DNA of 64,000 nt from an uncultured virus (IMG/VR IMGVR_UViG_3300032220_002272) (IMGVR_UViG_3300032220_002272), one strand, 5' to 3'. Positions 34,237 through 54,193 are shown, counted from the first letter of the stretch. Numbers and translations are program-made. The notes: generated from the letters alone by a model not told the origin.

Positions 34237-34646
34237 CTAGCGACGCGCGGTGGCGAGGGCGCGGCGCAGCGCGGCGTCGAAGGCGGCGGCGGCATTCCGC
34301 TGGATGTACCGGCGGGCGGCCTGCTCGAACGGCAGTCGCTTGCGCACTGGCGTCGTATCCTCGAACTGGATCAGGAGCTTCAGGCCTTGGCGAGGCTGGG
34401 CTCCGCTTGCCCGTCGCCCCTTCGCGGCCTTGGCCTTCGCTGGGCGCTGCCAAACGCCATTGATGACGCGGCCGGACTTCGTCTTGATTGGACCGATGTA
34501 GACGTTCGGCTTCGCGCGCAGTGAGGCGAGCTTGCTCTTCGGCAGGTTGCCGTACTGGTTGAGGCCGACGGCACGCGGAGCGAGCATGCCGCGCTTGGTG
34601 CCGAGCGAACGATCTCCGCCGAAGACGTAAGGGGCCAGATATTCGG
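34237..34646 (-). pseudogene. 3' part of interrupted helper gene (phage protein upstream of terS)
   Basis: Reads EYLAPYVFGGDRSLGTKRGMLAPR...; joins in frame with 54187-54446 through the TATTCGG repeat to give 220 aa. Confidence 0.88.
34640..34646. repeat. Satellite left att core TATTCGG
   Basis: Identical 7-mer at 54187-54193; 20 bp from the integrase stop. Confidence 0.85.
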
Positions 34647-34665
34647 TTTGGTTTTTATCGTTTAG

Positions 34666-35907
34666 TTACAGTGCGCTTAGGCCCCGTGCGTCACTAATGC
34701 GCAATGGCTTTGCGAAAACCGATGGCGCGACGGGTTCAATTTCGGCGCCGGTGAGGCGATGCGCCAGGGCGTCCACCGCCTCCAGCGACTGCGCCCGCTT
34801 CTCGATGCTGTGGGCGTAAACCTGCATGGTGATGTTCACGTTGGCGTGTCCCAGCTGCGCCGCAACGTCGGGCAGAGGCCATCCGTTTTCAATCATCCAG
34901 CTCGCAGCGAAATGTCGCAGGGCGTGGAAGCGGAAGGACTGCCCGTCCTTCAATCCCGCCCGTTCGAGCAGCGCCGACCAGCTCTTCGTCCACCAAGCAC
35001 CATATCCGATCGGGAGGTTGTGGCACGTCTGGAACACCAGGCTGTCCGGTCCTTCCGGCGGGAAGTCGGCAACATAGGCGCGAAGCAGCGCCAGCATGGA
35101 GGTAGGCAGCCGGATATCGCGCCGGCCCGCCTTCGTTTTCGGATCGACCAGCTTCGTGCGATCGACGCGGCTCAGCGACGTGCGCACGCGGAGAATGCCT
35201 GCGTCGAGGTCGAGGTTCTTCGATTGCAGCCCGGCAATCTCGCCCCATCGCATGCCCAGGAATGCCGCCAGCGACACGAAACATTGCAGCGTGGCCGTGG
35301 GGCGGCGTTTGGCCTTGTGGTAGCGCTGCCCGGCCGCGGCGAGCAGCGCCCGCACGTCGTCCAAACGAAATTGCCGGATGGGTTCCGTTCGAGCGATTCT
35401 CACGATCGGGGAAATCGATGCGGTAGGATTGATCCGCGCCCATTTATACCGGATCGCGAAATCCATAATCATCTTGAGCAGACTGATGCAATTGGTGACG
35501 GTTTTCGGGGCATAGCCGTCAAGGCGCAGCTGGCCGATCCATGTTTCAATCTGATGGACCTCCAGTTCGGTGACGATGATGTTCCCGATGCGCGGGCGCA
35601 GCAGGCTATCGATACGCTGCGAATATTGGGCGACGGACGATGCCCGCATCGCGCCGCGCTTCGCGGCCTGATCGATGTGCCGAACATATTCCGTGGCAAC
35701 GAAGTCGATCGTCTTCGCCTGCGATGCTGGGATATGCTCGCGATGCAGCAACTCGGTTTCTACCTTGTTCCGGTAGATGTCCGCTTCCTTTTTGCGTTGG
35801 AACGTCTTCTGACGGTAAGCCCCGCCCTGGTCCTTGTAGCGGACCGCCCACGCCTCTTTTTTCGTGCCGTCCGGTGCGGTCCACGATCGCTTCGATACGC
35901 TGGCCAT
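34666..35907 (-). CDS. int: Tyrosine integrase
   Basis: Arm-binding N-terminus; GMRWGE, PKTKAG, FHALRH, LGHAN, VYAH. Confidence 0.94.
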   Translation of the reverse strand: MASVSKRSWTAPDGTKKEAWAVRYKDQGGAYRQKTFQRKKEADIYRNKVETELLHREHIPASQAKTIDFVATEYVRHIDQAAKRGAMRASSVAQYSQRIDSLLRPRIGNIIVTELEVHQIETWIGQLRLDGYAPKTVTNCISLLKMIMDFAIRYKWARINPTASISPIVRIARTEPIRQFRLDDVRALLAAAGQRYHKAKRRPTATLQCFVSLAAFLGMRWGEIAGLQSKNLDLDAGILRVRTSLSRVDRTKLVDPKTKAGRRDIRLPTSMLALLRAYVADFPPEGPDSLVFQTCHNLPIGYGAWWTKSWSALLERAGLKDGQSFRFHALRHFAASWMIENGWPLPDVAAQLGHANVNITMQVYAHSIEKRAQSLEAVDALAHRLTGAEIEPVAPSVFAKPLRISDARGLSAL

Positions 35908-36752
35908 TACCGGCCTCCCTTCATGCTGTTCCAGTGGTCGAGCGCCGCCGTGCTGGCGACGGTGCAACCGTCATCCTGATAGGTGGGCAACCGACGTTCG
36001 GCGTCGAGACGCGTCACGTCCGCCGCCGGTATGCCCAAGTGCGCGGCAATGGCCCGATGCCCGTAGAGCAGCGCAGGTGACGCCGCCGCCGACGCTGGCG
36101 AAGGCGCCGCCCTTGATGAGCCCCCACCCGCATCGGATGCTTGCGATCCAGCGCGCTTTGTCGGGTCGCGGGGACCATACCGCCTGCTACCCTTTGGTAC
36201 TTCAGCAGCATTCGCAGACAACGCACCATCAAGCTCGATGCGTCGCGCGCAAATGCGGCTTCCCAGGCGGAAGGTTGGAAGGTTGCCCTTATCATGGAGG
36301 TGCGACGCGACCCGCTTCGGCAAGCCGAGGTATTCCGCGATGGCATCCATCCCGTACAGAATGCCGTTGGCCTCCCGTTGCGCCTGATCCGCCTCTCGTT
36401 GGGCCTCCAAGGAAGCCGCCTTACGTGCCCGGTACATCTCAACCTGCGAAGCGCGGTCAGCGATGCGTGCCGCAATGACGGACGGATCGGTTATCGGCGC
36501 CCTCCCCCTCTGCTGTGACTGCTCCACAGCAACAGTTTCCGCCGTTGCTCGCCCGCCCTTCGGTATTTTAAGACGCGCTTTGCGGTCCTCGGCGTAGCGG
36601 TCGAGGGCTGAGGGCCGTGCGTACACGGTATTTCCGGTCCCTTGGCGGAAGGTGGGCAGCCAGCCCTTGTCGGCTTCGGATTTCGCGAGAGACACGGTTA
36701 TTCCAAGATGCGCGGCGATCGCCTTGTAGCCGTGGATCAGGTCGGGCTTCAT
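35907..36752 (-). CDS. DNA-binding protein with three tandem Xis/AlpA-like domains
   Basis: Three copies of L(I/L)(H/Y)GxxAIAx(H/Y)LG...LPT(F/Y). Confidence 0.72.
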   Translation of the reverse strand: MKPDLIHGYKAIAAHLGITVSLAKSEADKGWLPTFRQGTGNTVYARPSALDRYAEDRKARLKIPKGGRATAETVAVEQSQQRGRAPITDPSVIAARIADRASQVEMYRARKAASLEAQREADQAQREANGILYGMDAIAEYLGLPKRVASHLHDKGNLPTFRLGSRICARRIELDGALSANAAEVPKGSRRYGPRDPTKRAGSQASDAGGGSSRAAPSPASAAASPALLYGHRAIAAHLGIPAADVTRLDAERRLPTYQDDGCTVASTAALDHWNSMKGGR

Positions 36753-37540
36753 GCCACCCTCCGTTCGTTCGTCAGCAACTCGGCGAGCTTCGTCAGCCCC
36801 TTCGCCGTCACCATGACCTGAAACGTCGAGCGCTCCGGCTGGCCGGGCGGCTGGTATCTGACCAGCCTGTGTTCCAGGTATCCCGCGTCGACCTTCGCCT
36901 GATAGGCAAGGATCCGTTCGCCGTCCGGCCGGCGGTAGGTCCACCCGTGCGTGCGCAGCCATTCGCCCAGCGCGCGTGGGCCGATCTGCAACGTCTTCGC
37001 CGCCGCCGTGATGTTCATGCTGCCTTCGGTGCCGGCGATCCGGTCGAGCGCTTCCGCCTTGGGCGCCAGCGTCGCGTTCTCGCCAGCAAGGGCGGTGTTT
37101 CGGTCCTCAAGCTCCAGGACCCGCTCCGAATAGCCGAGCAGCAGCCCGCGCAGCGCGGCGGGGTCATTAAGCGCCGCCGCCGTCGTCGCAGTGCCGTAAG
37201 CGCCGGACTTGCGCAGGGCGGGGATGACGTCGCCGGTGATCCACTTGCGGAACCGGTATGGCGCGGTGCCCGGCGTCATCGCATCGCGGCATCGGAGCGC
37301 CAACGTATAGACGCCTGCCTCCGACAGCGCGGTCGTTTCCTGCGCGCCGCCGGGGGTGTCGGAGATTACGACACCCTTCTCGTCAGGATCGAGCTTGGCC
37401 ACCGCGTCCCGTGCGTTCGCCAGCCCCAGGGCACGGCAAACGTCGTTGGCGATGAACCACGCCTGCCCGTCTCGCTCGATCGCGCGAACGGGGGTCGTGT
37501 CGAATTGAAATGGTGTGATCGCGTTCATGGGTATCTCCAT
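36749..37540 (-). CDS. Bro-N/KilAC antirepressor
   Basis: WFIANDVCRALG, FRKWITGDVIPALRKSGAY, APKAEALDR, VTAKGL. Confidence 0.88.
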   Translation of the reverse strand: MEIPMNAITPFQFDTTPVRAIERDGQAWFIANDVCRALGLANARDAVAKLDPDEKGVVISDTPGGAQETTALSEAGVYTLALRCRDAMTPGTAPYRFRKWITGDVIPALRKSGAYGTATTAAALNDPAALRGLLLGYSERVLELEDRNTALAGENATLAPKAEALDRIAGTEGSMNITAAAKTLQIGPRALGEWLRTHGWTYRRPDGERILAYQAKVDAGYLEHRLVRYQPPGQPERSTFQVMVTAKGLTKLAELLTNERRVA

Positions 37541-37585
37541 GAGAATGGCCCCGCCGCGCCGCCGATCGGCTGGCGGGGCGAGTTT

Positions 37586-37998: not shown

Positions 37999-38047
37999 CA
38001 CGGCCGAGCCTCCCTCAGCAATAGACCGCTGGTCGTTTGGCGCGCCG

Positions 38048-39078: not shown

Positions 39079-39085
39079 GTTTCAC

Positions 39086-39544: not shown

Positions 39545-39859
39545 ATGATCGGAAAACTGGAAGAGGTTGTGCTGCTCGCCGCGATTCGCGCAGGCGCGGG
39601 TTCGTTGCCGAGCGGCATCTATGAGCACATCGTGGCGACCGTGCCTGAAGGCGAAAAGGAACCGGCGTTCGGCGCGGTCTACACGACCATCATGCGTATG
39701 GCGGCGAAGGGCATGCTGTCCGAAGGCGCAAAAACTGACGACAAGGGCCGGCCGCGCAAGTCCTTCACCGTCACCGCCGATGGTACGCGGGCGTTGCAGG
39801 CCGGGTTGTCGCAGACGGCTGCCCTTGGCGGCTATCAGCTGAAGGGAGCACTGGCATGA
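39545..39859 (+). CDS. PadR-family winged-helix regulator
   Basis: IGKLEEVVLLA, GAVYTTIMRM..KG, GRPRKSFTVTADG. Confidence 0.85.
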   Translation: MIGKLEEVVLLAAIRAGAGSLPSGIYEHIVATVPEGEKEPAFGAVYTTIMRMAAKGMLSEGAKTDDKGRPRKSFTVTADGTRALQAGLSQTAALGGYQLKGALA

Positions 39860-40353
39860 GTACCGAAGAACGTACTCCCCTTTCCGCGGAGCAGCTGGAC
39901 GATCTGCTGAAGAACCTCGAACCGGGCAGCGACATTGCTGAATCGATCGTCCGCGCTCAACGCGGCGAGGGCAAGTTGTATTGGCTTACGGAAAAAAGCA
40001 TTTCCCCCTCGCTCCATGCCTTCCGCATTTTGGCTCAGCTGTCCTCCAAAGGGGCATCCTTCAGCCAGCTGGTGGCGCAAGCGAAGCAACTGGCGACGCC
40101 CGGCGACAACGCGCCGCCGTCGACGTTCTTGCTCGATCTGCTCATGAAGCCGGACGAGGCGAAGGACGCCGCCGCCAATCTGGAGGATTACTATCCTGTG
40201 TGGGTGGCGAAGCACGGCGCACGTCGAGCGTCGCGCATATTTCGGTTCCAGGCGAGCCGCATTCTCGTTGGCTACTGGTGGGGCCGGATCATGACGCAGG
40301 TCGAGCGCGTCGTGAAAACGGTCAGCGTGTTCGTCCGTCCCGGCGGAAATTGA
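39856..40353 (+). CDS. Hypothetical protein with permease-prefix-like C-terminal domain
   Basis: PPSTFLLDLL..ANLEDYY..HGARRASRIFRFQ; ATGA-coupled to PadR. Confidence 0.55.
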   Translation: MSTEERTPLSAEQLDDLLKNLEPGSDIAESIVRAQRGEGKLYWLTEKSISPSLHAFRILAQLSSKGASFSQLVAQAKQLATPGDNAPPSTFLLDLLMKPDEAKDAAANLEDYYPVWVAKHGARRASRIFRFQASRILVGYWWGRIMTQVERVVKTVSVFVRPGGN

Positions 40354-40374
40354 CGGACGGCGCCAGATGGGGAG

Positions 40375-40426
40375 TGCGGCAATGCCGTATTTCATCATTG
40401 ACATTGCTACGGCAATGCCGTATTTG
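40375..40426 (+). promoter_or_regulatory. TA promoter with two palindromic operators
   Basis: T(G/A)CGGCAATGCCGTA at 40375 and 40408; TTGACA at 40398 with TATTTG 17 bp later. Confidence 0.7.
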
Positions 40427-40431
40427 GCGCC

Positions 40432-40770
40432 ATGCACACGGTGATCGAAACCAATGCCTACCTTCGCGCTGCGAAGCTGGCCGGTGTCGATGACGATGAG
40501 CGCTCCGCGATCGTTGACCTGATCGCGGAGAACCCGGAGGCCGGCGACATAATGCCCGGATGCGGCGGCGCGCGAAAGCTTCGCGTGGCGCGTGAGGGCG
40601 GCGGAAAGTCAGGCGGCTATCGGGTCGTGACCTACTTTGCGGGTGAGGCGTTTCCGGTGTTCCTGCTCACGGTCTTCCCGAAGAATGTGAAGACCAACCT
40701 TACCAAGGACGAGCAGAACACGTTTGCCAGCGCCTGCAAGCGGCTGACTGATGGACTTGGAGGACGATAA
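40432..40770 (+). CDS. higB: RelE/HigB-family toxin
   Basis: NPEAGDIMPGCGGARKLR..GKSGGYRVV. Confidence 0.88.
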   Translation: MHTVIETNAYLRAAKLAGVDDDERSAIVDLIAENPEAGDIMPGCGGARKLRVAREGGGKSGGYRVVTYFAGEAFPVFLLTVFPKNVKTNLTKDEQNTFASACKRLTDGLGGR

Positions 40771-41063
40771 TGGCTCGCAAGGCATTCGACATGATGATGG
40801 ACGGCATCGCCGATGCCATCGCCTATGTTGAGGGTGACGAAAGCAAGGCGCGCGTCGCGAAGCCGATCGACGCCAAGGCCGTGCGCGTGGCCACCAAGAA
40901 GACGCAGGCCGAATTTGCGCAAACCTATCACCTCCCCATTGGGACAGTGCGGGATTGGGAGCAGAAACGGCGCTATCCTGATGCGCCCGCGCGCGCCTTC
41001 CTGGCGATGATCGAGGCCGAACCGGAGACGGTCGAGCGGCTGATGGCGAAGGTATCCGCGTAA
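40770..41063 (+). CDS. higA: HTH-XRE antitoxin
   Basis: TQAEFA..TVRDWEQKRRYPDAPARA; toxin-first order. Confidence 0.88.
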   Translation: MARKAFDMMMDGIADAIAYVEGDESKARVAKPIDAKAVRVATKKTQAEFAQTYHLPIGTVRDWEQKRRYPDAPARAFLAMIEAEPETVERLMAKVSA

Positions 41064-41315
41064 TTACCCCATCGTAAGGGGACGCCGCCGCCGCCGTTGA
41101 TCGGAAGCGTCCGCAGGCCCCTCCACGACATACACGCTGGCGCGGGTAATCGTGACCCGCGCAGAGGCACCCTCGACGACGTAGAGCGCGCCGCGGGAGG
41201 CAAAGCATCGCGCCGCCGCGCCCTCGACCGCGTACAGGCTGGCGCGCGAGACGTTCGCACCGCCAGCGCTCCCCTCAACCGCATAGAGGCTCGCGTGGCT
41301 CACTTCGGCCGTCAT
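41064..41315 (-). CDS. Small protein with four ~17-aa repeats
   Basis: Repeats ASLYAVEG, ASLYAVEG, GALYVVEG, ASVYVVEG; TGATG coupling. Confidence 0.6.
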   Translation of the reverse strand: MTAEVSHASLYAVEGSAGGANVSRASLYAVEGAAARCFASRGALYVVEGASARVTITRASVYVVEGPADASDQRRRRRPLTMG

Positions 41316-42283
41316 CAGGCCAGCGCCTCGAAACCAAATTCGCCGTTGGCGTGATCGATCGCGCGCCAGGCGCCCCCGGTCACAGGATCCCCGTCGAAAA
41401 TGGTAAGCGAGCCGGCAAACCCCGGCCCGATTCGCGCGGCATAGCCACCCCGATAGAGCTTCCCGTCGACGCGCAGCAGCGCGCGGACGTTCTGCGGCGC
41501 GTCCCCATCGTCGTTGCGAAGGCGCGCGCCGATGGCAACGGCCTTCACGATGTTGCCCGCTGGCGTGGCGGACAGCGCAGGCCCTGTGTACGTCGCCATC
41601 TGGCCTACGTCCGTCGCGCCGATCGTGGTGGTATCGTCAAGTGCAGCCTTGCCGATCGCGGCGACATCCCCGGACCAGTCCGCCGCCGCGCCCGCCGCGG
41701 TGGGGCGGCGGACGCGGACGGTATGGCCGATCGTCCCATAGCTGGCGGCGATGACATCGCGGATCGTCTGGCCGTCATATCCCGATGCCCCGCGGAAACG
41801 CAGGCGTCCGACGTTGCCGATACCCGACGTGTCGATGCCCTTCAGGTCGAGCAGCAGTCCTCCGTTCCAGAAAAGCGCGATTCGCCCCTCGCTCCCATCG
41901 ACAACGATCAGCGCGTCGAGTGCCCCGGAATTGAGCGCCGGAAAGTCGCCCGCGGTTCGCCATGCCCCGTCGGGGCCGCGAAAGCGGAACGTCATGCCGC
42001 GGTTCGCATTGCCCTCCGCCTGCACCGCATCCGCCCCGGCAGCCGTCATCCAGGTGATCGGGAACCGGCCGCGGTCATAGGTGCCGTAGGCCGGGGCGAG
42101 CGCGACATGCGTCCACAGCCGCTTCAGCGATGCCCCGGCGCCGGTTGCCGGGTCGATCAGTACCGCGTCGGCATAGGCCGCAGCGCTGGTCCCGATCTCC
42201 ACCGCGGCGTCGCCGGCCGCGCGCGGCTGCGTCGGGGACAATTCATAGGCGTCGACGCCGCCCGCCGCGAAATATGTCGGCAT
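41315..42283 (-). CDS. Beta-rich putative virion/adhesin protein
   Basis: 322 aa, beta-strand rich, coupled to neighbours; function inferred. Confidence 0.55.
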   Translation of the reverse strand: MPTYFAAGGVDAYELSPTQPRAAGDAAVEIGTSAAAYADAVLIDPATGAGASLKRLWTHVALAPAYGTYDRGRFPITWMTAAGADAVQAEGNANRGMTFRFRGPDGAWRTAGDFPALNSGALDALIVVDGSEGRIALFWNGGLLLDLKGIDTSGIGNVGRLRFRGASGYDGQTIRDVIAASYGTIGHTVRVRRPTAAGAAADWSGDVAAIGKAALDDTTTIGATDVGQMATYTGPALSATPAGNIVKAVAIGARLRNDDGDAPQNVRALLRVDGKLYRGGYAARIGPGFAGSLTIFDGDPVTGGAWRAIDHANGEFGFEALA

Positions 42284-42771
42284 CAGATGGCCACCCCGGA
42301 AATTGTGAAGCGTAGGCGCGCGATGGTCGGGTCAACGACTTCCGGCGCGATGACGGTGACGATATCTCCGACCGCGATCGAGTACCGGCGGTCGAAGGAA
42401 TTGACGAACAGACTCGTCCCATCACTTCCGATGGTCAGCGCCCCGATCGCCTGCCCGTTGACCGACAATTCCGCCGACCAGAACGTCGACGGCGGTGTGC
42501 CGACGCTGGCGACGCAACCCGCGAAGTCCGCCGCCAGGACGTGCGGCGCCGCCGCGACATGATCGAGGAGAATTTCCTTCGACGCGACATCCCCCACGGC
42601 GAAACCGCCGAAGCGATAGAAGCCAGTGATGGTGTCGGGGGCAGGATCGATCCCCCGCAGGATCGTTGCAACCGGGATCGCGATTTGTCGGCCATCCTGG
42701 AAGGCGGCAAGGAGCTCTCCCCCATCAAGTGGGCGCGATGGGCCGGGATAGGCCGCAATAGTCGAGAACAT
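42283..42771 (-). CDS. Fibre-like protein
   Basis: GGAG RBS; N-terminal LDGGELLAAFQDG motif; C-terminal FAGCVASVG...VNG...GDIVTVIAP...DPTIA domain. Confidence 0.55.
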   Translation of the reverse strand: MFSTIAAYPGPSRPLDGGELLAAFQDGRQIAIPVATILRGIDPAPDTITGFYRFGGFAVGDVASKEILLDHVAAAPHVLAADFAGCVASVGTPPSTFWSAELSVNGQAIGALTIGSDGTSLFVNSFDRRYSIAVGDIVTVIAPEVVDPTIARLRFTISGVAI

Positions 42772-42877
42772 ATTCACTCCGGCGGTAATTTCCGCGCGAA
42801 CCGTTATTGCGCCGCGCGGCGTTGGCGTTGAGAATATCGGCGCGTTGCGCGTTGATGCGCAGAACAGGAGACGGTCG

Positions 42878-43209: not shown

Positions 43210-44856
43210 CTAGCGGCTGTTACTGAATGCGTGGCTGATCGCGCCGCCGGCTCTTGCAGTCGCCTTCACGCCAGCGGGCGCGTTTTTGAACTCGATCTCG
43301 AGCAAAATGCGCTCCGCGATGTTCGCACGATCGGCGCTATCTCGGTCCTTTTCTTTGGGTCGCTCGTAATATCGGGTGATGGCTTCGGCCTTATCACCGG
43401 TCCCTTGTGCTTGCGAAATCAGCCGCGCGGCCTTCTTCTCAGTGTGACCCAGCTCCCATTTGCGGAACCGCTGCTGATCCTCATACGACGAACCGTATAT
43501 GCTTTTCCCCATCGCCTTCTGGAAGTCGATGCGGCGATCGTTCTTTTTATCGTAGGCACCCCATTGAAAGAGACCGTACCCTGGCCCCTTCGGTTGCTGT
43601 CGGTGCGGATCATTGTTGCTCTCGGCTTCGCCGACCGCAGCCCAAGCGGCAGCTTCGTCGGCTGGCATGCCTTCCGAACGATACCTGAGATAATGCTTAC
43701 TCGCGGCGCGCGCCAAGCTATCGACCTTCTTCGGGCTAAACCGCCCACCGCGGCGCCACCCCTTGGTGTAGCCGGAGGGCGGCGCTGACACTCCACCGCT
43801 CTCCACGCCGCCGCCTGCGGGGGCGGGCGATGCCTCCGAACCGCTGGCGCCGCCGCCCTTGGTCAGCGCCTCGTATCCCGCAATGGCGCCATCGCCGACC
43901 GTCTTGACCGCCGTCGCATTCGCGCGCTGCACGGCATTCAGGCCCTTTCCCGCCCACTGCATCGCCTTCGTGTCGCGCCGGGTGATATCGCGCCCGAGCT
44001 TCACGTCGTCGTCGGTGATGACGGTGCCGTTCTCGCCGTAATCCTTCATGTCCGCCGACAGCGCGGCACCCCCTTGGGTGAAGGCGGCGAGCGCGCCATC
44101 CGATATGCCCAGGGCGCGGCCGGCCGTCCGTTGCCCGGACGAGTTTTGCCGAGAGATGGCATTGGCGATCGAGGGGATCATGGCCTCCACGTCGACGGTG
44201 CCGTCGTCTTTCGTCTTCATGGCGACGCCCATCTTGGACAGGATCGCCAGCGCCCCGGAGTTGCGGCCGTACCTCGCATCGTTGAGCGTCTGCGACAGAC
44301 CGGCCATGGACCCCATCGCCGTATTCTTGTCGACTCCGACCCGCTCAGCAGCCCCCGCGAACTCCTGTAGGCCCTTTGTGCTGACGCCCATGAGGGATGC
44401 CATGTTGCCGAGCTGGTTCGCACCCTTGCCCCACGAGTCTGCCAGCTTCACCATACCGGCCGCCAGGCCGACGACGGCCGCGCCGGCCGTCAGCGCCGCG
44501 CCGCCGATCCCGACGATACCAGCCTCCAGGGCGCCCGCACCGACTGCGGCCTCGCCCATCGATCCGCCGGCGAGGGTCGCCATGTTGCGGATCGCGCCTA
44601 GGCGGCTGATGACGCCGGAACCGTTGCTACCCAGGGGGCCGGCGAAGGCGCGTTCGGTCGCGCGCTCCACCTCGCCGAACGTGCGCGTGATGCCACGCCC
44701 CCAACGCGATATGCCGCGCTGGGTCGCCCCCATGCCCCGGTCAGCGCCCTTCGCCATTTTTTTGGTCGCGCCGTCAAAGCGACGTTCCGCTTTGGCGATG
44801 CCCTTCGCCGTCTTGTCGTTGGCGACGATATCGATGCCGACGCGAGGTGCGTTCAT
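43210..44856 (-). CDS. Satellite tape measure paralogue with phage-tail-lysozyme-like domain
   Basis: Shares IDIxANDxTAKG, LSQTLNDARYGRN, DDGTV, RQNSSG and AISHA with the helper TMP; AES..GYGLFQW...WEL...YYERP. Confidence 0.85.
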   Translation of the reverse strand: MNAPRVGIDIVANDKTAKGIAKAERRFDGATKKMAKGADRGMGATQRGISRWGRGITRTFGEVERATERAFAGPLGSNGSGVISRLGAIRNMATLAGGSMGEAAVGAGALEAGIVGIGGAALTAGAAVVGLAAGMVKLADSWGKGANQLGNMASLMGVSTKGLQEFAGAAERVGVDKNTAMGSMAGLSQTLNDARYGRNSGALAILSKMGVAMKTKDDGTVDVEAMIPSIANAISRQNSSGQRTAGRALGISDGALAAFTQGGAALSADMKDYGENGTVITDDDVKLGRDITRRDTKAMQWAGKGLNAVQRANATAVKTVGDGAIAGYEALTKGGGASGSEASPAPAGGGVESGGVSAPPSGYTKGWRRGGRFSPKKVDSLARAASKHYLRYRSEGMPADEAAAWAAVGEAESNNDPHRQQPKGPGYGLFQWGAYDKKNDRRIDFQKAMGKSIYGSSYEDQQRFRKWELGHTEKKAARLISQAQGTGDKAEAITRYYERPKEKDRDSADRANIAERILLEIEFKNAPAGVKATARAGGAISHAFSNSR

Positions 44857-44936: not shown

Positions 44937-45098
44937 TCAGGCGTCAGCCTGCGGAGCGAACTCGAGGCCGGCCCACTGGCACCAGCGCCAGAGGTCCGAC
45001 CACCGGCGCGCGGCGATCACGTCGGGCGCCTGCCCGTAGCGCATCGCCAGCGCGTCGATCAGCGGTCCCCAGCCGGCAGGCCGGGCACGAGAAAATTT
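44937..45098 (-). CDS. -1 frameshift extension of the satellite chaperone
   Basis: A AAT TTT heptamer; -1 frame RPAGWGPLIDALAMRYGQAPDVIAARRWS is homologous to the helper extension. Confidence 0.75.
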   Translation of the reverse strand, partial: KFSRARPAGWGPLIDALAMRYGQAPDVIAARRWSDLWRWCQWAGLEFAPQADA

Positions 45099-45625
45099 GC
45101 CAGATAGCTCCCCGCCGCCACCAGGTCCCGCGCCCCCAGCTTGTGGAGCGCCACCTCCGGCACACCGGATACCGCGCCGATAATTTTCAGATCGGCGAGG
45201 ATCCCGTCCGCCTTATCCCACTCGATCAGCTGGTTCGCCGTCGGCTCATGGAGCGCGATCTGACGATAGGTCGTCTCGCCGTGCTCGATCGGATACCGCA
45301 AGTCGATGACGAGCTCGGCGGGTACGTCCTGCGGCTGATCGACGCTGACTAGGCCGAACGCGTTGACGAACTCCGCTGCGGCGATGATGTCGCGGGCGAC
45401 GAGCTGGCCAATGACGCTGACCGGTCGGCCCGATACGACCGACACTGCAACGATGTTTGCTTCGATGCCGGACAGGTGCGCCCATCGCAACATTTCGCCC
45501 GCGCGAGGCTCCCGCAGATCAAGGGTCGCGACCGACTCGTCGAGGAAGGGGACGGGCTTGCGCAGGGTAAGGGTCCGGGTGTCCGGCATGATATCAGCCA
45601 TGGCGGGGGTATCGGTATCGTTCAT
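45059..45625 (-). CDS. Satellite tail assembly chaperone with two tandem gp41-like domains
   Basis: LRKPV..LREPRAGE..VSGRP and LRYPI..LHEPTANQ..VSGVP; similar to 22648-23001. Confidence 0.8.
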   Translation of the reverse strand: MNDTDTPAMADIMPDTRTLTLRKPVPFLDESVATLDLREPRAGEMLRWAHLSGIEANIVAVSVVSGRPVSVIGQLVARDIIAAAEFVNAFGLVSVDQPQDVPAELVIDLRYPIEHGETTYRQIALHEPTANQLIEWDKADGILADLKIIGAVSGVPEVALHKLGARDLVAAGSYLANFLVPGLPAGDR

Positions 45626-46205: not shown

Positions 46206-46931
46206 ATGGCGCAGGCTGCGCGCATGACGATCGAAGTGACCAAGATGATTGAGCCGGCGAAGGCCGTGCTTGCCCCCGCTGGGAACACATTGAGCGAGGC
46301 GTGGGCCGGCGTGATCGGTGATCGCGTCGCCGCGTGGCGCCTGAAGAACGCCGCCGCGTTACAGGTAAAAGTGAACGAGGAATGCGCGGCGTTGGGGCTG
46401 AAGGTCGACCGCGCCAAGATCCCCGAACGCTATGCGATCGCGTGGTTCGAGGAAGCGACGAAACAGGACGAGCCGGAGATACAGACGCTATTCGCACGCC
46501 TGCTAGCGCGGGCCACAGCGGGGGATGACGATGCCGGCGACCGCCGCCTACTGGCGATCGTCAGCCAACTGACGCCGATTGATGCGAAGGTGCTGGAGTG
46601 GCTGTTCAAAAGGGTAGGGCACCCCACTGCGTTTCCGCAGATCGAAGAATTCGTGGCTTGGCGTGAGGTCAAAGACGAGTTTGGCGAACGCGCGCTCATC
46701 TCACTCGACCAATTCGTCGTGCTTGGAATATTCGAACGGCAGTATTCATTGCGCAACGACGCCGGCCTATCGTCATGGCATTCGGTAGAGTCCGGGATGT
46801 CGATCAGTCGCCTAGCGGAAGACATCACGGGCAATATGACGGTCACGCCCGATCTGTCCGCAACGCCTTTGGGATTGGCGCTGTATAAGGCCTGCCTTTC
46901 TGGCAACCCCCAGGAAGTCACCGGGGGGTGA
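46206..46931 (+). CDS. Abi-alpha (DUF4393)-like protein
   Basis: WRLKNA...EEATKQDEPEIQTLFARLLA...IVSQLTPIDAKVL. Confidence 0.7.
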   Translation: MAQAARMTIEVTKMIEPAKAVLAPAGNTLSEAWAGVIGDRVAAWRLKNAAALQVKVNEECAALGLKVDRAKIPERYAIAWFEEATKQDEPEIQTLFARLLARATAGDDDAGDRRLLAIVSQLTPIDAKVLEWLFKRVGHPTAFPQIEEFVAWREVKDEFGERALISLDQFVVLGIFERQYSLRNDAGLSSWHSVESGMSISRLAEDITGNMTVTPDLSATPLGLALYKACLSGNPQEVTGG

Positions 46932-47505
46932 GGCGAGGGTCCGTCAAGTCTTGCTCGAAAATCTCCAGCGAGGCGAGACGAGCGCGGACGTGCCGGTGTA
47001 GGACCGCTTGCACCGCGTCCACCCGACCGGGGATCCCCAGGTCAGCCGCGACGGCCGCCGCGATGCCCCCCGGCCACCGGTCCCACCCCGCGTCCTTACA
47101 CGCCTCGTCCCAGGCGGCGTGATCCGCAGCGTCTAGGGCTTCCACCCGATCGGCTTCGTCGCCGCTCTCGATCCACGTCCGCAGTTGCGTCGACATAGTG
47201 TTGGGGTTGCCGAGCCGATGCCAGCCCGCCCAGGGGGACGGCGCCGGCAGCACCTCAACGGGCTTGCCGGCGACATACCCCATGCCAGGCCGATCGATCA
47301 GGCCGCGGACGCCCTCAGTACGCCTTCCACCGTGCGCCTTTACCCGGAAACGGCCCTTGCCGGCCGCCTGCATCTTGGCGTCCGACGCCGCCGCATCGAC
47401 CTGATCGCCTTGCATGACGAGGTATCCACGGTCCTGCCATTTCTTCGCGGCCTGACGGCTGGCGCTGTGGGTGGCCGCATAGGCGGTCAGGGACATGAGG
47501 GTCAT
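46918..47505 (-). CDS. terS: Satellite terminase small subunit paralogue
   Basis: MTLMSLTAYAATHSASRQA vs helper MTLLSITAYAETHGMKRQA; C-terminal W..WP..IA..VAADLGI; adjacent to the cos copy. Confidence 0.78.
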   Translation of the reverse strand: MTLMSLTAYAATHSASRQAAKKWQDRGYLVMQGDQVDAAASDAKMQAAGKGRFRVKAHGGRRTEGVRGLIDRPGMGYVAGKPVEVLPAPSPWAGWHRLGNPNTMSTQLRTWIESGDEADRVEALDAADHAAWDEACKDAGWDRWPGGIAAAVAADLGIPGRVDAVQAVLHRHVRARLASLEIFEQDLTDPRLTPR

Positions 47506-47539
47506 CAAACGCTCCGGTGTTAAATGGTTGCAGGTCATG

Positions 47540-47860
47540 GTTGCCCCCCCGCAACCAAGCGATGGTTGCGGGGGCAACCGGGTTCGGTTGCGGGGGCAAC
47601 CAAGATGCGGTTGCGGGGGTGCGGTTACGGGGTGTGGCCGCGCCGTCCCGATCGGGCAGACGCCCCGGATTTCTGCGGCGACAGACGCAACAAGCCCCGC
47701 AACAGGCCCCCGCAACAAGCGGCGTTTGTTGCCCGCAACAGACGCAACAGGTTGCGGGGTTTGTTGCGGGGGGTGCCGCAACCAAGATTTCGCAGATTTC
47801 TGCGGGCTAGAGGCCCCTCACCCACCCCGCAACCCCGCAACAGGTTGCCCCCGCAACCAA
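47540..47860. repeat. Array of ~15 CGCAAC/GTTGCG motifs in both orientations
   Basis: Counted by eye; lies between the satellite cos and terS. Confidence 0.8.
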
Positions 47861-47935
47861 CTTTTTGATTTCGTAGCTGGGGTTACGTCGGGGTGCGCAA
47901 TTACCCCCGTTGCAGAAGGGGGTCGGAAGGACCCA
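47851..47935 (-). other. Satellite cos copy
   Basis: Ungapped 71/85 match to 34141-34225; exact GGGTCCT cosQ-like motif. Confidence 0.8.
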
Positions 47936-48899: not shown

Positions 48900-49349
48900 A
48901 TGGACGAGGTTTCAGGCCACCGATTGGACGACGTGATTGCGCAAAAACGGGTGCCGGTATTGATCCGGCGCGGCCCAGGTCTTCCGCCGCGGCTTCAGAT
49001 ACCGTTCGACCTCGGCAATCGGGCTTGGTTGCGAGCGACGGGCATGAACAATCCGAAATGGATCGCGCCGGATAAGCAATGGGAGGTGCCGCAATCCCGC
49101 TTTACGGAATTGGTGAACAGGTGCCTCGAAAAATTCGGGAAGGTGTGGGTGGTCCAGCCCTACAACGAACAGGAGAAGTGCGCTCCGGCATGCTGGGACG
49201 CGGAGAAGGAAGAATGCCAGTGCTCTTGCATGGGCGTGAACCACGGCTCGCGCGGTCCGGCTGGGCGCTGGAAAATCGTGTCGGACCATTTCGCCACCCG
49301 ATGGCTCGGCGCCCGCATGGCGGCGAGGCTGGTCGTGAGACGGTCCTAG
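48900..49349 (+). CDS. Cys-rich accessory protein
   Basis: GGAGG RBS; CAPACWDA..ECQCSCMGVNHG. Confidence 0.65.
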   Translation: MDEVSGHRLDDVIAQKRVPVLIRRGPGLPPRLQIPFDLGNRAWLRATGMNNPKWIAPDKQWEVPQSRFTELVNRCLEKFGKVWVVQPYNEQEKCAPACWDAEKEECQCSCMGVNHGSRGPAGRWKIVSDHFATRWLGARMAARLVVRRS

Positions 49350-49933
49350 ATCAGGCCCGCCGTCATCCCGGCGGCGCATGTCGGCGGCGCATTGGGCGCG
49401 ACAGACGTCACGGTCTTAATCGGCTCCCGGTAGGGTGGCCGTGGTGGACCGTAGTACAGCGCGCGACTCACCATCGTTCCGTCGGATAGCAGCCGCATCG
49501 CTCCATCCTCGACCGCGATCCGCATCCATTTCTCCGGCACGTCACCGATCGGCCCGCCTTCGCGCACGCTCGAGAGCCAGAGCGGGAATTGCGCGTCTGT
49601 GAATCGCTTGACCTCGATCAGCGCGTCAGCCTGTTCCGACGCGGGGGGCTGGTAGCGGTTGAGGATGTCGAGGCATTGGCTGGGCGACGGAAACCATTCG
49701 AGGGTCGCGCAAGCCGTGCGGGCCATGAACGCCAAGGCGGCTTCGCTCCGATCGCCCAGCAACGCCGCGTAAACGGCAAACCGCATTTTCCCGGTCCGGT
49801 CGTCATCGCCGCGCGAGGGTAGCGCCGCGCGCATGAAGTCGAGATGCCGGGCCAACTGGTCGCGCGTCGCCGGCGTCGCGGCACCGCCGGCCGTGGACAA
49901 GGCCCATTCGCGCAGCTGGTCAGCCTCGGCCAT
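49346..49933 (-). CDS. Replication accessory protein (loader-like position)
   Basis: Downstream of the initiator; WFPSPSQCL; start uncertain (alternative 50059). Confidence 0.55.
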   Translation of the reverse strand: MAEADQLREWALSTAGGAATPATRDQLARHLDFMRAALPSRGDDDRTGKMRFAVYAALLGDRSEAALAFMARTACATLEWFPSPSQCLDILNRYQPPASEQADALIEVKRFTDAQFPLWLSSVREGGPIGDVPEKWMRIAVEDGAMRLLSDGTMVSRALYYGPPRPPYREPIKTVTSVAPNAPPTCAAGMTAGLI

Positions 49934-50669
49934 CGTCGTCGGCGTTCCCACCGGCCTGCACCTCACGGAGGGCGGCGACGAAGCCATCGAGGGGCCGTCC
50001 TCTATCACGCGCAGCGCCCGCGCCGCCGCCGCGCCGATCCCCGAAGGTCCGTTGTCCATGCTCGCCTCCCGTGATGCTCGATTGCCGGCGGCTGCGGCGG
50101 ACCCAATTGCGCCAGGTCGCCAGCCAATCGGCCTTCCGGCCCGCCGCGCCCGGCTGCGCGACCCAATAGTCGCGGAACACGTCCGCCTCCGCGCTGGCAT
50201 CCGCGGCGGTCCATCCGCGCTCTGCCGTCGCCCACGCAGTCCATTCGGCCGGCGGGGTGAAGTCCGACGCGAGCCGCGATCCTGATGCCGCCGCCGGCCG
50301 CGTCTTCGCGCGCACGGACTTATCTCTATTACTGACGGTTCTTGGTGTATTGGGGGGCAGCGTGTCCGGGGTTTGGGTATTCTCTGTCCGGGGGGACAGC
50401 GTGTCCGGGGGGACAGCGTGTCCGGGGTGAACGGTATAGAGAATGCCGCGACCGGGCTTTCGAATTGTGCTGATGCAGCCGCCCGCCTCCAATCGCGCCA
50501 TGACACGCCGCGCAGTGCGTACATCGACGCCGGTTTTCTCGGCTATCGTCGGCATCGATGGCCAGCACTGCCCGCTCTCATTCGCCCAGTCGGCAAGTGC
50601 GACCAGGACGAGGCGGTCGATAGGCGGAACCCCCGATGCCCACGCCTCGGCGATGAGGCGGAAACTCAT
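49920..50669 (-). CDS. Satellite replication initiator (HTH_36, lambda-O-like layout)
   Basis: LVLVALADWANESGQCWPSMPTIA; internal iterons; C-terminal FRDYW..DWLATWRNW. Confidence 0.8.
   Translation of the reverse strand: MSFRLIAEAWASGVPPIDRLVLVALADWANESGQCWPSMPTIAEKTGVDVRTARRVMARLEAGGCISTIRKPGRGILYTVHPGHAVPPDTLSPRTENTQTPDTLPPNTPRTVSNRDKSVRAKTRPAAASGSRLASDFTPPAEWTAWATAERGWTAADASAEADVFRDYWVAQPGAAGRKADWLATWRNWVRRSRRQSSITGGEHGQRTFGDRRGGGAGAARDRGRPLDGFVAALREVQAGGNADDDGRG
50352..50427. repeat. Iteron-like repeats (putative satellite ori)
   Basis: 17-bp tandem TGTCCGGGGGGACAGCG units inside the initiator gene. Confidence 0.7.
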
Positions 50670-51458: not shown

Positions 51459-51532
51459 AGGACGGTCCTTGTTCGATGGCGGCAGGCGCTGTTGCCGGTG
51501 CGTGATGTGCGATGACCTAGGGTCGTCCAGTC

Positions 51533-52045
51533 TCAGCGGACGCCCGCGGTGGGTGCGCGCAGCGTTTGACCCGTCATCCGCGGGCCAGCCCCGGCTTTGT
51601 CGAGCATAGTCGAAACCGCATGTTCGACCGCCGCCGCCGGCGCATCCCCGTCGAACGACAGATGGTCGCCGATGCGATCCCGTTCGGCGAATGGACGGAC
51701 GGTGACGGTCGTGCCACCCGGCCCGCATTGCACCTCGACCCAATCCCCCTTGGTATGTTCGACACCAGCCGGCCAGTCTGGGCCAGGTCGCGCATAGACG
51801 GCGATGACAGCGCGCTTTGGCTGCATGTCGTCGGCAAACTGAGGCTCGATCACGAGGACGACACCGGCGGACGCCAACTCGGCGGCGGCGCGCTCCAGTG
51901 CGGGCATCACCCGTTCCTGCAACTGATCGATAAACGGGCGCAGGATGGTCAGGCCGTTGCGCCGGTCACGCTCTGCGGCGGCGGCGGTGTTGAGGTCGAG
52001 GCGGATAGCCCCGGCGCGCGCGATCAGGGCGGCGAGATAGGTCAT
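51533..52045 (-). CDS. Hypothetical protein
   Basis: GGAG RBS, 170 aa. Confidence 0.5.
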   Translation of the reverse strand: MTYLAALIARAGAIRLDLNTAAAAERDRRNGLTILRPFIDQLQERVMPALERAAAELASAGVVLVIEPQFADDMQPKRAVIAVYARPGPDWPAGVEHTKGDWVEVQCGPGGTTVTVRPFAERDRIGDHLSFDGDAPAAAVEHAVSTMLDKAGAGPRMTGQTLRAPTAGVR

Positions 52046-52067
52046 AGGTATCTCCGTTTCCGGTCAA

Positions 52068-52769
52068 TCAGGAGGCGAGCGCAGCACGCAAAGCGTCGAC
52101 CGCTTCGGGGTGGCGATCCCGCACGCCGCCGCCGCCGCGCTCCGCCACCAGCAGATAAACGCGCTCGTTGCCGGGTCCGACGAGCGACAGCGAGCTCTCC
52201 GGCGCGATGCGGCGTTGCAAGCCATTGACGATGCCGCCCGGCCCGTCCGCCAGCCGCAGAAGGGAAAGCTCCTGCATAGGGGTGAGCACCTCGCGGGTCA
52301 GAACCTCCCAGCGCGTCAGCAATTCGGCGGCCAGGCCGTCATACGCCCCCCGCACGAACGCCTCCCATGCGTGCGCGCGATCGACCTGCCCCGCGGCGAT
52401 GTCCGCTTCCAGCCCCGCGATCTCGCCCTCGACCGCCGTCAGGGCCTGATGGAAAGCAGCCTGTACGGCGGCGGCGGCGTGATCCTGAACCGCCGCCGCC
52501 GCACGGCTATCGCGAAGCTGCGCCGTCGTGCTCGCGTCGATTGCCGTCGCCGGATCGGCAGCGAGGCGCGCAGCCAGATCGTCGGTTGCCGCGTCGGGTG
52601 CTGTCGACACAGCGCTTTCGCCTGCGATCCGCGCCGTAAGGGCATCGCGTCGGGCGCGCGCGCCGTCGAGGCGATCCGTGAAAGTCGCCAGGGCGGTATC
52701 GAGCTTGCGTACATCGGCGTCGAGCGCGGCAATGCGCTGACGCTCCGCCGTGTTGGTGAAGGGCGTCAT
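52068..52769 (-). CDS. Coiled-coil protein, paralogue of 48096-48809
   Basis: AAGGA RBS; AWEAFV..EL..RW..V..PM. Confidence 0.68.
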   Translation of the reverse strand: MTPFTNTAERQRIAALDADVRKLDTALATFTDRLDGARARRDALTARIAGESAVSTAPDAATDDLAARLAADPATAIDASTTAQLRDSRAAAAVQDHAAAAVQAAFHQALTAVEGEIAGLEADIAAGQVDRAHAWEAFVRGAYDGLAAELLTRWEVLTREVLTPMQELSLLRLADGPGGIVNGLQRRIAPESSLSLVGPGNERVYLLVAERGGGGVRDRHPEAVDALRAALAS

Positions 52770-52935
52770 GGTGAATCCTTGTAATGGTGGGAGGCTGCCG
52801 GCGGACTGACATCGCCGGCTTGGGTCACGCCAGGCGATGGCGTGCCGGGTGGGGATGAGAAAGGCGACCAAGCCAGCGCGGTCCCCTGCCCGGTGCTATC
52901 CGCGCTTCGCTTCTCGGTAAGCGGTCACAGGCTGA

Positions 52936-53160
52936 TTACCGCGCCAGCGCCTTGCCGGCCTTGGCGAGCAGGCCAGCCCACCCATGGTCCGGCGCGGCGG
53001 CGGCGCGCTCGGCGGGCGCGGCGTTTTTCAGCGGTGCGCCGGCCTTCGCGAAGGCGCCTCCCCAGCCGTTCTTTGCGTCGGCGCGGTGAGCGGCGCCCCA
53101 ATCGCGCAGGCCCGCGGTGGCCGCGGGCGTTCCGAAGTGCGAGAAATCGTGTTTCGGCAT
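52936..53160 (-). CDS. Small protein with repeated W-G/A-x-x-x-AKAG motifs
   Basis: GAGGA RBS; MPKHDFSHFG...WGGAFAKAG...WAGLLAKAG. Confidence 0.5.
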   Translation of the reverse strand: MPKHDFSHFGTPAATAGLRDWGAAHRADAKNGWGGAFAKAGAPLKNAAPAERAAAAPDHGWAGLLAKAGKALAR

Positions 53161-53195
53161 GTGTCGTCCTCGCTGGCGTATTGAAGCGAACCCGA

Positions 53196-53531
53196 TCACC
53201 GCGGCCAGCGACGCGGGGGCGGGATCAGGTGCGCGAACGGAGACGATGGCGTGGGAGGTGGCGCGTCTGCATCGCCGCGAAGGTGCGCGAAAGGGCCTGA
53301 CGGCGGTGGGACCGCTGCGCCGGGGCGAAGGTGTCCGAAGGTCCCGACCGGCGGGGCGTCGCGCTTGACCAGGTGCCATACCTGCCATGGCAGGCGCCTG
53401 CGGTCCGTCCTCCGCTTCGGCTCCGGCTGCTCTGCGTTCGCAAGCACGGGCGACGGCGCGGCGGCCGGTGCCTGCCCCTTCATTGTGCGGAACGCGGCCA
53501 TGAGCATTTCGAAGGGGGAACGGCTCGCCAT
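53196..53531 (-). CDS. Pro-rich protein with repeated PFAHL-like motifs
   Basis: SPFEML, GTFGHL, GPFAHL, SPFAHL; TGATG coupling. Confidence 0.5.
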   Translation of the reverse strand: MASRSPFEMLMAAFRTMKGQAPAAAPSPVLANAEQPEPKRRTDRRRLPWQVWHLVKRDAPPVGTFGHLRPGAAVPPPSGPFAHLRGDADAPPPTPSSPFAHLIPPPRRWPR

Positions 53532-53788
53532 CAGGACGCGTCCGCTGCTCGGCCCGCCCGGCGGAGGACGATCATATTGCGGCCGGACAGCTCATGAAGG
53601 GCGCGGCGCGTTACGTCGACCGGTAGGCCGGACGCAGCGGCGGCGGCGGCATCCGTGCCTCCATAGACGCCGGCAGGATCGACCATGCCACGGATCGCTC
53701 GCAGGACGGTGCGGGCGTTCAACGACACATCGAACCCGCCAGGGCGCGACGCGGAGCGCGAACGCTGCGCGATCGTGCCGCGCTTCAC
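53531..53788 (-). CDS. Small winged-helix-like protein
   Basis: GTGA overlap with the upstream gene; SGLPVDVTRRALHEL. Confidence 0.45.
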   Translation of the reverse strand: MKRGTIAQRSRSASRPGGFDVSLNARTVLRAIRGMVDPAGVYGGTDAAAAAASGLPVDVTRRALHELSGRNMIVLRRAGRAADAS

Positions 53789-54012
53789 TTCGCTTCCCCA
53801 GCCGATGAGCGCGCCGCCGCAGCTTCCTGGGCAGCGAAATGCTTCGCCAGCGTCGACCGCCGGGCGCAGACTGTCTTGCCCATCTTGAAGGTCGGAAGAC
53901 CGCCGTTGCCGTGAAGGTGATACACCTGCTTGGCGGTCAGATTGAGATGTTCGGCGATCGCGTTGACCCCATGAAGGAGGTCCGTTGTCGATGCGCCCTG
54001 TGCGTCGCTCAT
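53785..54012 (-). CDS. AlpA/excisionase-like DNA-binding protein
   Basis: LLHGVNAIAEHL..LPTFKMGKTVCARRSTL; first gene inside the right end. Confidence 0.75.
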   Translation of the reverse strand: MSDAQGASTTDLLHGVNAIAEHLNLTAKQVYHLHGNGGLPTFKMGKTVCARRSTLAKHFAAQEAAAARSSAGEAK

Positions 54013-54108
54013 GCGTCACTCCATGCGTTATTGAGGTGCCGGCCGATCTCGAAAAATGGCGGAAAACCGCCATTTATGCCGGCAGATGTCGGGAACACGC
54101 CTGACGTG

Positions 54109-54132
54109 AAAAAGGGGCGCCGTAGCGCCCCT
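54109..54132 (-). terminator. Intrinsic terminator just inside the satellite right end
   Basis: GGGGCGC-TACG-GCGCCCC-TTTTT on the minus strand. Confidence 0.75.
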
Positions 54133-54186
54133 AAACTGTTGGAAAACTGCCGTTTTCTACCCTCTCAGCGTGAGAGGATACACAAG

Positions 54187-54193
54187 TATTCGG
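54187..54193. repeat. Satellite right att core TATTCGG
   Basis: Identical to 34640-34646. Confidence 0.85.

Follow-up and report, generated by a model that had tools for sequence, protein, structure and literature searches.

Helper-embedded phage-inducible chromosomal islands (HE-PICIs), reported by Tommasini, Mageeney and Williams in 2023 (PMC10111431) with Eco567.11capE of E. coli NRG857c as the founding example, are satellites that reside inside prophages of Enterobacteriaceae; 491 such elements are described, at 14 sites in lambda-type late genes. According to that account, the HE-PICI integrases form a clade with a repeated tropism for late genes, the elements are organized into Integration, Bro, Replication and Late zones, the last one with captured late genes, and, in the experiment presented there, the composite excises and replicates first whereas the satellite excises afterwards; the Phase 1 survey and all its elements are limited to Enterobacteriaceae (PMC10111431). 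Here, we analyze a 64,000-nucleotide stretch of DNA from an uncultured virus (IMG/VR IMGVR_UViG_3300032220_002272; this whole stretch is hereinafter the window), in which a 19.5-kb insert with a tyrosine integrase and a 7-bp core lies inside a late virion gene of an alphaproteobacterial prophage. In our assessment, the insert is very probably a helper-embedded phage satellite, which would make it an alphaproteobacterial counterpart of the HE-PICIs. The concept is thus already published, and the configuration is less novel than was assumed in the initial annotation of this DNA (PMC10111431). The part worth following is the integrase clade along with its relatives that split the gene for the large terminase subunit, TerL.

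Among the other satellites, cos-type phage-inducible chromosomal islands (PICIs) and those of the Staphylococcus aureus pathogenicity island (SaPI) type divert the helper terminase via the helper cos or a small terminase subunit, TerS, of their own. P4, which depends on P2, possesses an integrase, its own replication and a cos matching that of the helper, can possibly persist as a plasmid, and integrates at a chromosomal tRNA gene. A virus parasite carried within the genome of its helper is also represented by the provirophage Sputnik 2, integrated in the mimivirus genome, a eukaryotic giant-virus system that has no sequence or mechanistic relation to the element analyzed here. The cos-type PICIs, such as EcCICFT073 (named in PMC10111431), and the SaPI-type islands occupy host chromosomal sites and act on their helpers in trans, whereas the present element lies inside the helper. 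No description of such elements in Alphaproteobacteria was found in the literature searched.

A mobile insert within a late gene of a prophage

The insert is flanked by two copies of the heptamer TATTCGG (the attL and attR cores in Table 1). The heptamer alone occurs at chance level, three times on the plus strand and twice on the minus strand of the window, so that the repeat is significant because of the gene context of its flanks rather than its count. The flanks carry the two halves of a gene of the phrog_1924 family (the match of the C-terminal piece in the PHROGs profile search spans 34240-34587), which is made whole only if positions 34640-54186 are taken out: segments 54446..54194 and 34646..34237, when joined, form a 663-bp open reading frame (ORF) for 220 amino acids (aa), whereas the unjoined N-terminal fragment runs into a stop codon 9 codons past the core. 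The joined product is identical at 220/220 residues to P0113, a database protein without interruption (13 member sequences, 7 contigs). It also aligns over the entire length with six intact homologues, of which three come from phage records (199-239 aa) and the other three from prophages of Alphaproteobacteria; no indel is present at the junction, which lies within a conserved YLxPxxxGGxR motif. With one intact relative as the query, 315 homologues were retrieved at E <= 1e-8, with lengths of 201-251 aa among the 120 of the 315 matches listed. The repeat and the restored frame proposed in the initial annotation are thus borne out, and the frame has full-length homologues, one of them identical.

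The PHROG label for phrog_1924 is 'minor tail protein'. An AlphaFold model of P0113 (25 aligned sequences, mean pLDDT 74.8), compared with PDB representatives using VIA-align, matched best chain P of 9mu2, a neck structure of SaPI1 (Z 9.7, root-mean-square deviation 2.9, 107/109 residues aligned; the search output does not state which neck protein chain P is), with the runner-up at Z 6.2. In BFVD, the same model retrieved unnamed viral proteins at E 1e-12 as well as HK97-gp10-family, tail-component and neck proteins at E 1e-3 to 0.1. Foldseek comparison of the model with PDB gave no match at E <= 0.001, and the PDB sequence-profile search with the 220-aa protein returned only chance matches to antibody light chains. 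We take these results as a moderate lead for a neck or tail-completion role of the 220-aa protein, which agrees with the PHROG label; together with the position of the split gene, the 9mu2 fold suggests that it belongs to the late genes.

Comparison of public contigs over positions 34420-54419 identified both products expected of excision, as natural forms rather than in an induction experiment. A 658-bp contig from run X18 (organism B) represents the empty site, with position 34639 joined straight to 54187 and 0 differences, whereas an 18,894-bp contig from run X15 (organism A), a variant that is ~95-97% identical to the insert, contains the joined ends (54186->34640), with 7 letters that fit both sides. 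The latter, attP-type junction represents a circle or a tandem, contig depths being unusable for estimating its copy number, and may be comparable to the plasmid state of P4. The integrated form was found in a diverged, ~97% identical strain from a metagenome of another study (run X6), where a 7,055-bp contig crosses the same attL junction (34519-36186, 43 differences). A 4,800-bp IMG/VR contig of 99.9% identity also spans attL, and the IMG/VR scan with the integrase yielded nothing beyond this contig. The 7-bp core is the crossover region, and these observations support the conclusion that the insert is a discrete, site-specifically integrated and still mobile element.

The prophage around the insert, encoded mostly on the minus strand, extends as a single unit from ~7000 past the end of the window, to ~71,522 in the IMG/VR provirus record G001, which is 100% identical to the window and is the same DNA rather than independent support. 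Its genes are arranged in the order lysis (7024-8235), fibres, Mu-type baseplate, tape measure protein (TMP), tail assembly chaperone (TAC), tube and sheath, followed by a lambda-E-type capsid, decoration protein, protease, lambda-type portal, gpW, TerL (31283-33310) and TerS (probable start at 34109). This outer phage, of ~45 kb, looks complete, with a lambda-type head and a Mu-type tail. The insert splits the late virion gene immediately upstream of the cos-like core and TerS and, as originally noted, separates the antiterminator-like gene from the late operon by 19.5 kb. Beyond the insert lie a 61-aa ORF, the antiterminator-like gene, RusA, two methyltransferases and a DnaN-like clamp, with a CI-like repressor, an excisionase and the helper's own integrase just outside the window. 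Homologues of the insert's integrase point to Sphingomonas as the host.

Packaging-related parts and the comparison with HE-PICIs

The insert (34640-54193, that is, 19,547 bp plus the second copy of the core) contains 29 called genes, 24 of which are co-oriented with the late genes, including those for the integrase, the helix-turn-helix (HTH) proteins, the Bro-N protein, the replication protein and the element's own small terminase, TerS'. The genes of the window were called with a crude codon-bias caller of our own and annotated using Pfam and PHROGs. In these searches, no match to capsid, portal, TerL, sheath, tube, baseplate or holin families was detected among the 29 insert proteins. The gene content previously assigned to the insert, namely an integrase, a replication gene and packaging parts but no recognizable capsid, portal, TerL, sheath or tube genes, stands with the caveat that genes for a tape measure protein with a lysozyme domain (TMP') and for a tail chaperone (TAC') are also present. 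These two proteins are 37-40% identical to the helper counterparts; for TMP', the identity is 37% over the full length, and a nucleotide patch (44042-44367 in the insert, 21700-22025 in the helper) is 72% identical.

Terminases of the gpA/Nu1 type, such as that of the helper, are cos enzymes. The element encodes TerS' next to a 104-bp stretch resembling one in the helper that lies between the stop codon of the split gene and TerS (Table 1). The window contains 31 copies of the motif GTTGCGG where 16 are expected; 13 of these copies are located in 47549-47857, between the cos-like core of the element and TerS', and 5 in the helper at 33845-34147. Judging from position and conservation, these sites are putative cosN and cosB. 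The relationship extends to the relatives discussed below: the region just upstream of the TerS of the respective helper is copied in the element in all four helper/element pairs analyzed (the window, XAN, MET and PRO), in a pair-specific manner, and the motif GGGTCCYTCC is common to three of the four pairs. In the MET composite (L090/L031), the cos-like core common to the helper (~2230-2290) and the element (~10350-10414) is followed by different repeats, GTGAAC x4 in the helper and GGCAA(A) x4 in the element, a difference that would fit separate TerS specificities.

The element shares with the HE-PICIs, as described in PMC10111431, the residence of a satellite-sized element inside a lambda-type prophage, with disruption of a late gene and no replacement sequence, co-orientation with the late genes, the combination of an integrase, an HTH_17/AlpA-type gene and a Bro-N gene with a replication zone and a late zone that holds phage late genes, a copy of the cos-like region of the helper, and defence-type cargo. 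The differences are nevertheless substantial. The integrase is unrelated to that of 11capE (BLASTP E 0.49) and belongs to a separate clade in a quick maximum-likelihood (ML) tree, and its gene is the last one in the direction of late transcription, whereas in 11capE, it is the first one, right after the N-terminal fragment of the capsid gene. The zones follow the order HTH - replication - cos/TerS' - late genes - Bro-N - HTH_17 - Int rather than the Integration - Bro - Replication - Late order given for HE-PICIs. The doubled attP-arm motif of HE-PICIs, TGTATTGC, is not found in the element; its one match in the window, at 26233, is outside the element and at chance level (at least one match to TGTATTGC in 42/100 shuffles). 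Replication involves an O-like initiator rather than a primase, and the element has its own TerS whereas 11capE, in its description in PMC10111431, has no terS. The host is an alphaproteobacterium, in contrast to the Enterobacteriaceae of the Phase 1 survey, and the target gene, phrog_1924, does not come up in the passages of PMC10111431 consulted here. Thus, the element shares the HE-PICI lifestyle and much of the gene content but, set against that description, falls outside the integrase clade and lacks the int-first polarity and the TGTATTGC arm motif.

The Sid, Psu, Delta and alpha-type primase families of P4 had no PHROG or Pfam match in the insert, although diverged homologues could escape such searches, and an Rfam scan of 33000-56000 gave no match at E <= 0.1, with no P4-like C4 or isrK RNA. 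The families that characterize capsid-forming PICIs (own capsid, portal and head-tail connector genes) were likewise unmatched in the insert.

Integrase relatives, alternative explanations and a possible life cycle

An alignment of 17 integrases was used to retrieve 80 loci from species-representative genomes, from which 33 alphaproteobacterial loci were taken (L009-L036, L039, L043, L044, L053 and L054); with L012, L015 and L029 left out for too little downstream DNA, 30 loci could be assessed. In 21 of the 30 loci, int is followed within ~3 kb by genes for phage virion or packaging proteins encoded on the same strand, and in 15 of these 21, the first downstream ORF is a 5'-truncated gene for TerL, portal or protease. 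The remaining nine loci (L009, L021, L022, L024, L026, L043, L044, L053 and L054) do not adjoin late genes. The earlier claim that the element always co-resides with a helper is too strong in view of the integrase gene at L009, which lies upstream of smc, and of the X15 joined-ends form.

The missing 5' part of the gene was recovered across an 11-21-kb element on the same contig in five cases, all of them TerL genes: in Xanthobacter (XAN, L033; 19.9 kb, split at PTSIL), Methylobacterium (MET, L031; 21.1 kb, split at LKTTV), a metagenome-assembled genome (MAG; PRO, L017; 11.5 kb), Brucella pituitosa (L016; 16.6 kb) and Sphingomonas sp. (L032; 11.0 kb). In two further cases (L010 and L030), the halves are on separate contigs. 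TerL-splitting elements thus occur in Xanthobacter, Methylobacterium, Brucella, Sphingomonas and two MAGs. XAN, MET and PRO, the three elements that were annotated, have int at one end and a phrog_18541-type HTH gene near the other; their cargo includes TerS' (XAN and MET), a primase or helicase, Ant proteins, toxin-antitoxin pairs and SbcCD-like genes, and giant helicase proteins are also carried by the relatives. No match to capsid or portal families was found in these three elements. In the quick ML tree, the alphaproteobacterial integrase clade is set apart with an SH-aLRT support of 99.

Several of these loci have features of their own. The 16.6-kb insert of B. pituitosa (G007:C2:771962-790472) holds a second, complete TerL (phrog_9 positions 186-793), which might reflect either a large capture of late genes or the nesting of one phage in another. 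The PRO element (L091:4-795 with L017:151-1206) has a second, more distant integrase at the upstream end and, therefore, an integrase at both ends, in addition to an internal transposase. In Sphingomonas fuzhouensis (L009:6543-6700), the same Ant-HTH-Int module occurs close to a transposase, and phage genes are lacking downstream of it. In a Sphingomonadaceae MAG (L092:3058-6873; G005:C213), the genes are arranged as TerS - 268 aa - phrog_6368 - 90 aa - phrog_1924 - TerL N-terminal fragment, so that a phrog_1924 gene lies between TerS and TerL; phrog_6368 is also represented in the insert of the window (41315-42283).

The order of the late-type features of the insert, cos - TerS' - (gap with Abi) - TAC' - TMP', mirrors a phage late operon with a deletion, as would be the case if a decayed second prophage, nested in the first one, had lost the genes from TerL to sheath, with cos, TerS, TAC and TMP left as remnants and no evolved dependence on the outer phage. 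The moderate similarity of TMP' and TAC' to the helper proteins and the second TerL in the related Brucella insert are compatible with such a scenario. We nevertheless consider it unlikely given that XAN, MET and PRO (11.5-21 kb) also yield no capsid or portal match, which indicates a recurring architecture rather than a one-off deletion, that the empty-site and joined-ends junctions show the element to be still mobile, that none of the 29 called ORFs showed a broken frame and that the copy of the cos-like core is pair-specific in each of the four pairs; capture of late genes by satellites is, moreover, documented (PMC10111431). The conserved phage gene could also be merely the attB of an integrative defence or cargo island, perhaps an episome, that spreads by other means and is not packaged by the helper. 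The Abi_alpha protein, the RelE-like pair and PadR in the insert, the toxin-antitoxin pairs, SbcCD-like and giant helicase proteins in the relatives, the O-like replication gene and the X15 joined-ends form, which could be a plasmid state, are all in line with an island of this kind. However, relaxase and conjugation families had no match in the insert in the Pfam and PHROGs scans, and a TerS homologue with a pair-specific cos-like copy would be of no evident use to an island that is not packaged, which leaves this explanation with a quite small probability. That the window appears to be derived from a metagenome, with runs X1-X4 labelled as its possible source, raises the issue of an assembly chimera between two unrelated phage contigs; with attL bridged independently by the 99.9% identical IMG/VR contig and the diverged X6 contig, and the insert ends coinciding exactly with the empty-site and joined-ends joints, such an artifact is extremely improbable.

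Several points weigh against the interpretation of the insert as a helper-embedded satellite. Its size is ~43% of the helper length and no capsid-size gene was recognized, so that packaging as dimers or an unrecognized small-capsid function are possible. The closest integrase relative, L009 (76-78% identity), occupies a chromosomal site upstream of smc. The TAC and TMP genes and several phage-type ORFs are present in the element as they would be in a decayed phage. For 14 of the 29 proteins encoded in the insert, no family was matched (Pfam E <= 1e-3, PHROGs E <= 1e-5). The genes were called with a crude caller, and the cos assignment is based only on position and helper/element similarity. 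On the whole, the evidence still strongly favors a helper-embedded satellite, for which we infer helper dependence, packaging and an effect on helper yield.

In the life cycle that we infer for the satellite, derepression of the helper would trigger late transcription from the antiterminator region through the N-terminal fragment of the split gene into the co-oriented element, so that the replication genes and TerS' of the element would be expressed along the way, and the HTH_17 protein and the integrase last. The integrase would then excise the element precisely (both the empty-site and the joined-ends junctions are seen in public contigs), restoring the 220-aa gene and reconnecting the late operon to its promoter region. 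TerS' could bind the GTTGCGG array beside the helper-like cos core, recruit the gpA-type TerL and the capsids of the helper, and package the element, which might subsequently re-integrate into a resident helper, stay circular or take a secondary chromosomal site.

We cautiously lean towards the view that helper-embedding evolved independently in Alphaproteobacteria, where an unrelated integrase clade would have repeatedly retargeted prophage sites within genes for packaging and head proteins, including TerL codons 28-49, in elements with int as the last gene, their own TerS, a cos core matched to that of the helper and, for one pair or more, TerS-binding repeats of their own. In lambda, these codons presumably fall within the TerS-binding N-terminus. 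In this scenario, the integrase would be produced only after late read-through has traversed the entire satellite and, therefore, the helper would be unable to package or complete the virion until the satellite is excised.

The helper-embedded lifestyle, described in Enterobacteriaceae, hereby extends to environmental Alphaproteobacteria, where an unrelated lineage of integrases is involved; this suggests that living in the late and packaging genes of a helper is a recurrent, selected strategy rather than a quirk of a single clade. In the TerL-splitting relatives, phage packaging comes under a natural and very direct switch based on gene integrity, and the cos/TerS pairs of helpers and elements offer a compact system for analyzing how a satellite TerS could redirect a gpA-type terminase.

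Features and variable regions of the composite

In the direction of late transcription, the insert starts with a terminator-like hairpin, followed by a 75-aa HTH protein, ORFs without assigned functions, the O-like initiator (49920-50669) with its neighbour, and a 237-aa ORF. The middle part consists of the cos-like core, the GTTGCGG array, TerS', Abi_alpha on the opposite strand, a 140-aa ORF, TAC' and TMP', and the end part, of three phage-type ORFs, the RelE-like pair and PadR on the opposite strand, small ORFs, Bro-N/KilAC, HTH_17 and the integrase.

Table 1. Coordinates of the features of the element and the adjacent helper genes in the window
Feature	Position	Strand	Basis
Helper gpA-type TerL and TerS	31283..34109	-	phrog_57, PF05876, PF20454
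Helper cos-like core, between split-gene stop and TerS	34177..34230	-	helper/element similarity, position
Split helper late gene, C-terminal part with stop codon	34237..34646	-	phrog_1924 positions 123-237, E 4.3e-17
attL core TATTCGG, left end of element	34640..34646	.	X18 empty-site contig; X15 joint, 7 letters fit both sides
Tyrosine integrase, last gene in late-transcription direction	34666..35907	-	PF00589, phrog_1; homologues mainly Sphingomonas
281-aa HTH_17 protein adjoining int (candidate excisionase or AlpA-like regulator)	35907..36752	-	PF12728 E 4.3e-5 (under Pfam cut-off); phrog_18541
Bro-N / KilAC (Ant) protein	36749..37540	-	PF02498, PF03374, phrog_130
Opposite-strand cargo: PadR-like regulator, 165-aa ORF, RelE-like toxin and HTH partner	39545..41063	+	PF03551, PF06296, phrog_5869, phrog_2104
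Three phage-type ORFs (83, 322 and 164 aa)	41064..42777	-	phrog_6368, phrog_7049; atlas: viral clusters, lectin-like fold
Tape measure protein with tail-lysozyme domain (late zone)	43210..44856	-	phrog_2276, PF18013
Tail assembly chaperone, two tandem TAC_7 domains	45059..45625	-	PF10109, 2 stretches
Abi_alpha-domain protein (candidate abortive-infection cargo)	46206..46931	+	PF14337 E 1.9e-12; weak PADLOC match
Element's own small terminase TerS'	46918..47538	-	50% identity over 54 aa to N-terminal domain of helper TerS, E 5e-16
13 GTTGCGG motifs between cos-like core and TerS' (candidate TerS-binding sites)	47549..47857	.	motif count
cos-like core copied from helper	47833..47935	-	82% identity over 104 bp to helper 34122-34225
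Replication module: O-like initiator (249 aa, HTH_36) and 201-aa neighbour	49346..50669	-	PF13730; phrog_1032, phrog_391, phrog_3992
First gene of element, 75-aa HTH	53785..54012	-	phrog_18541
GC hairpin and U run just inside upstream end, terminator-like	54113..54132	-	-22.4 kcal/mol, z -3.4
attR core TATTCGG, right end of element	54187..54193	.	sequence; public-contig junctions
Split helper late gene, N-terminal part (phrog_1924; neck or tail-completion-like)	54194..54446	-	profile positions 4-92 of 237, E 8.5e-25
Helper antiterminator-like gene, upstream of split gene	54764..55342	-	phrog_6386 E 1.5e-23

The hairpin at 54113-54132 was not listed by the consensus terminator scan, and the terminator/promoter scan of 34900-54800 was at chance, with 12 terminator-like sites against 13.1 expected. 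Relaxed Pfam thresholds yielded nothing useful for the insert proteins without assigned families; the atlas look-up returned only viral hypothetical clusters for the 322-aa ORF and was uninformative for the 140-aa ORF (45724-46143). PADLOC produced only a weak match in the insert (E 2.8e-4), to the Abi_alpha protein. Both TAC_7 domains of TAC' match residues 31-117 of the single-domain chaperone of the helper. The GC content of the insert is not distinct from that of the flanks, and the search for tRNA genes was negative for both the window and locus L093.

In the X15 and X6 variants, parts of the HTH_17, Bro-N, PadR and Abi regions are replaced. In X15, segments 36082-36746, 39446-40166 and 46484-46954 are swapped for unrelated sequence; in the 3' half of Abi_alpha, 469 bp are exchanged for 862 letters, and the same exchange is found in X6. 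This pattern suggests that the exchanged segments are cargo hotspots or dynamic zones.

Prophage callers merge or truncate composites of this kind. The IMG/VR provirus record G001, which covers the window from 20847 to ~71522, starts amid the tail genes of the helper and fuses helper and satellite, with a CheckV completeness of 100%.

The host genes at the left end of the window (1 to ~6300) encode a glutathionylspermidine synthase and an MHYT-GGDEF-EAL protein. The early region of the helper (57517-62742) encodes a PAPS-reductase-like protein, C5 and N6/N4 DNA methyltransferases and a DnaN-like sliding clamp, a set to which L093 adds Mom-like and cysteine-dioxygenase-like genes; together, these genes may constitute a DNA-modification module.

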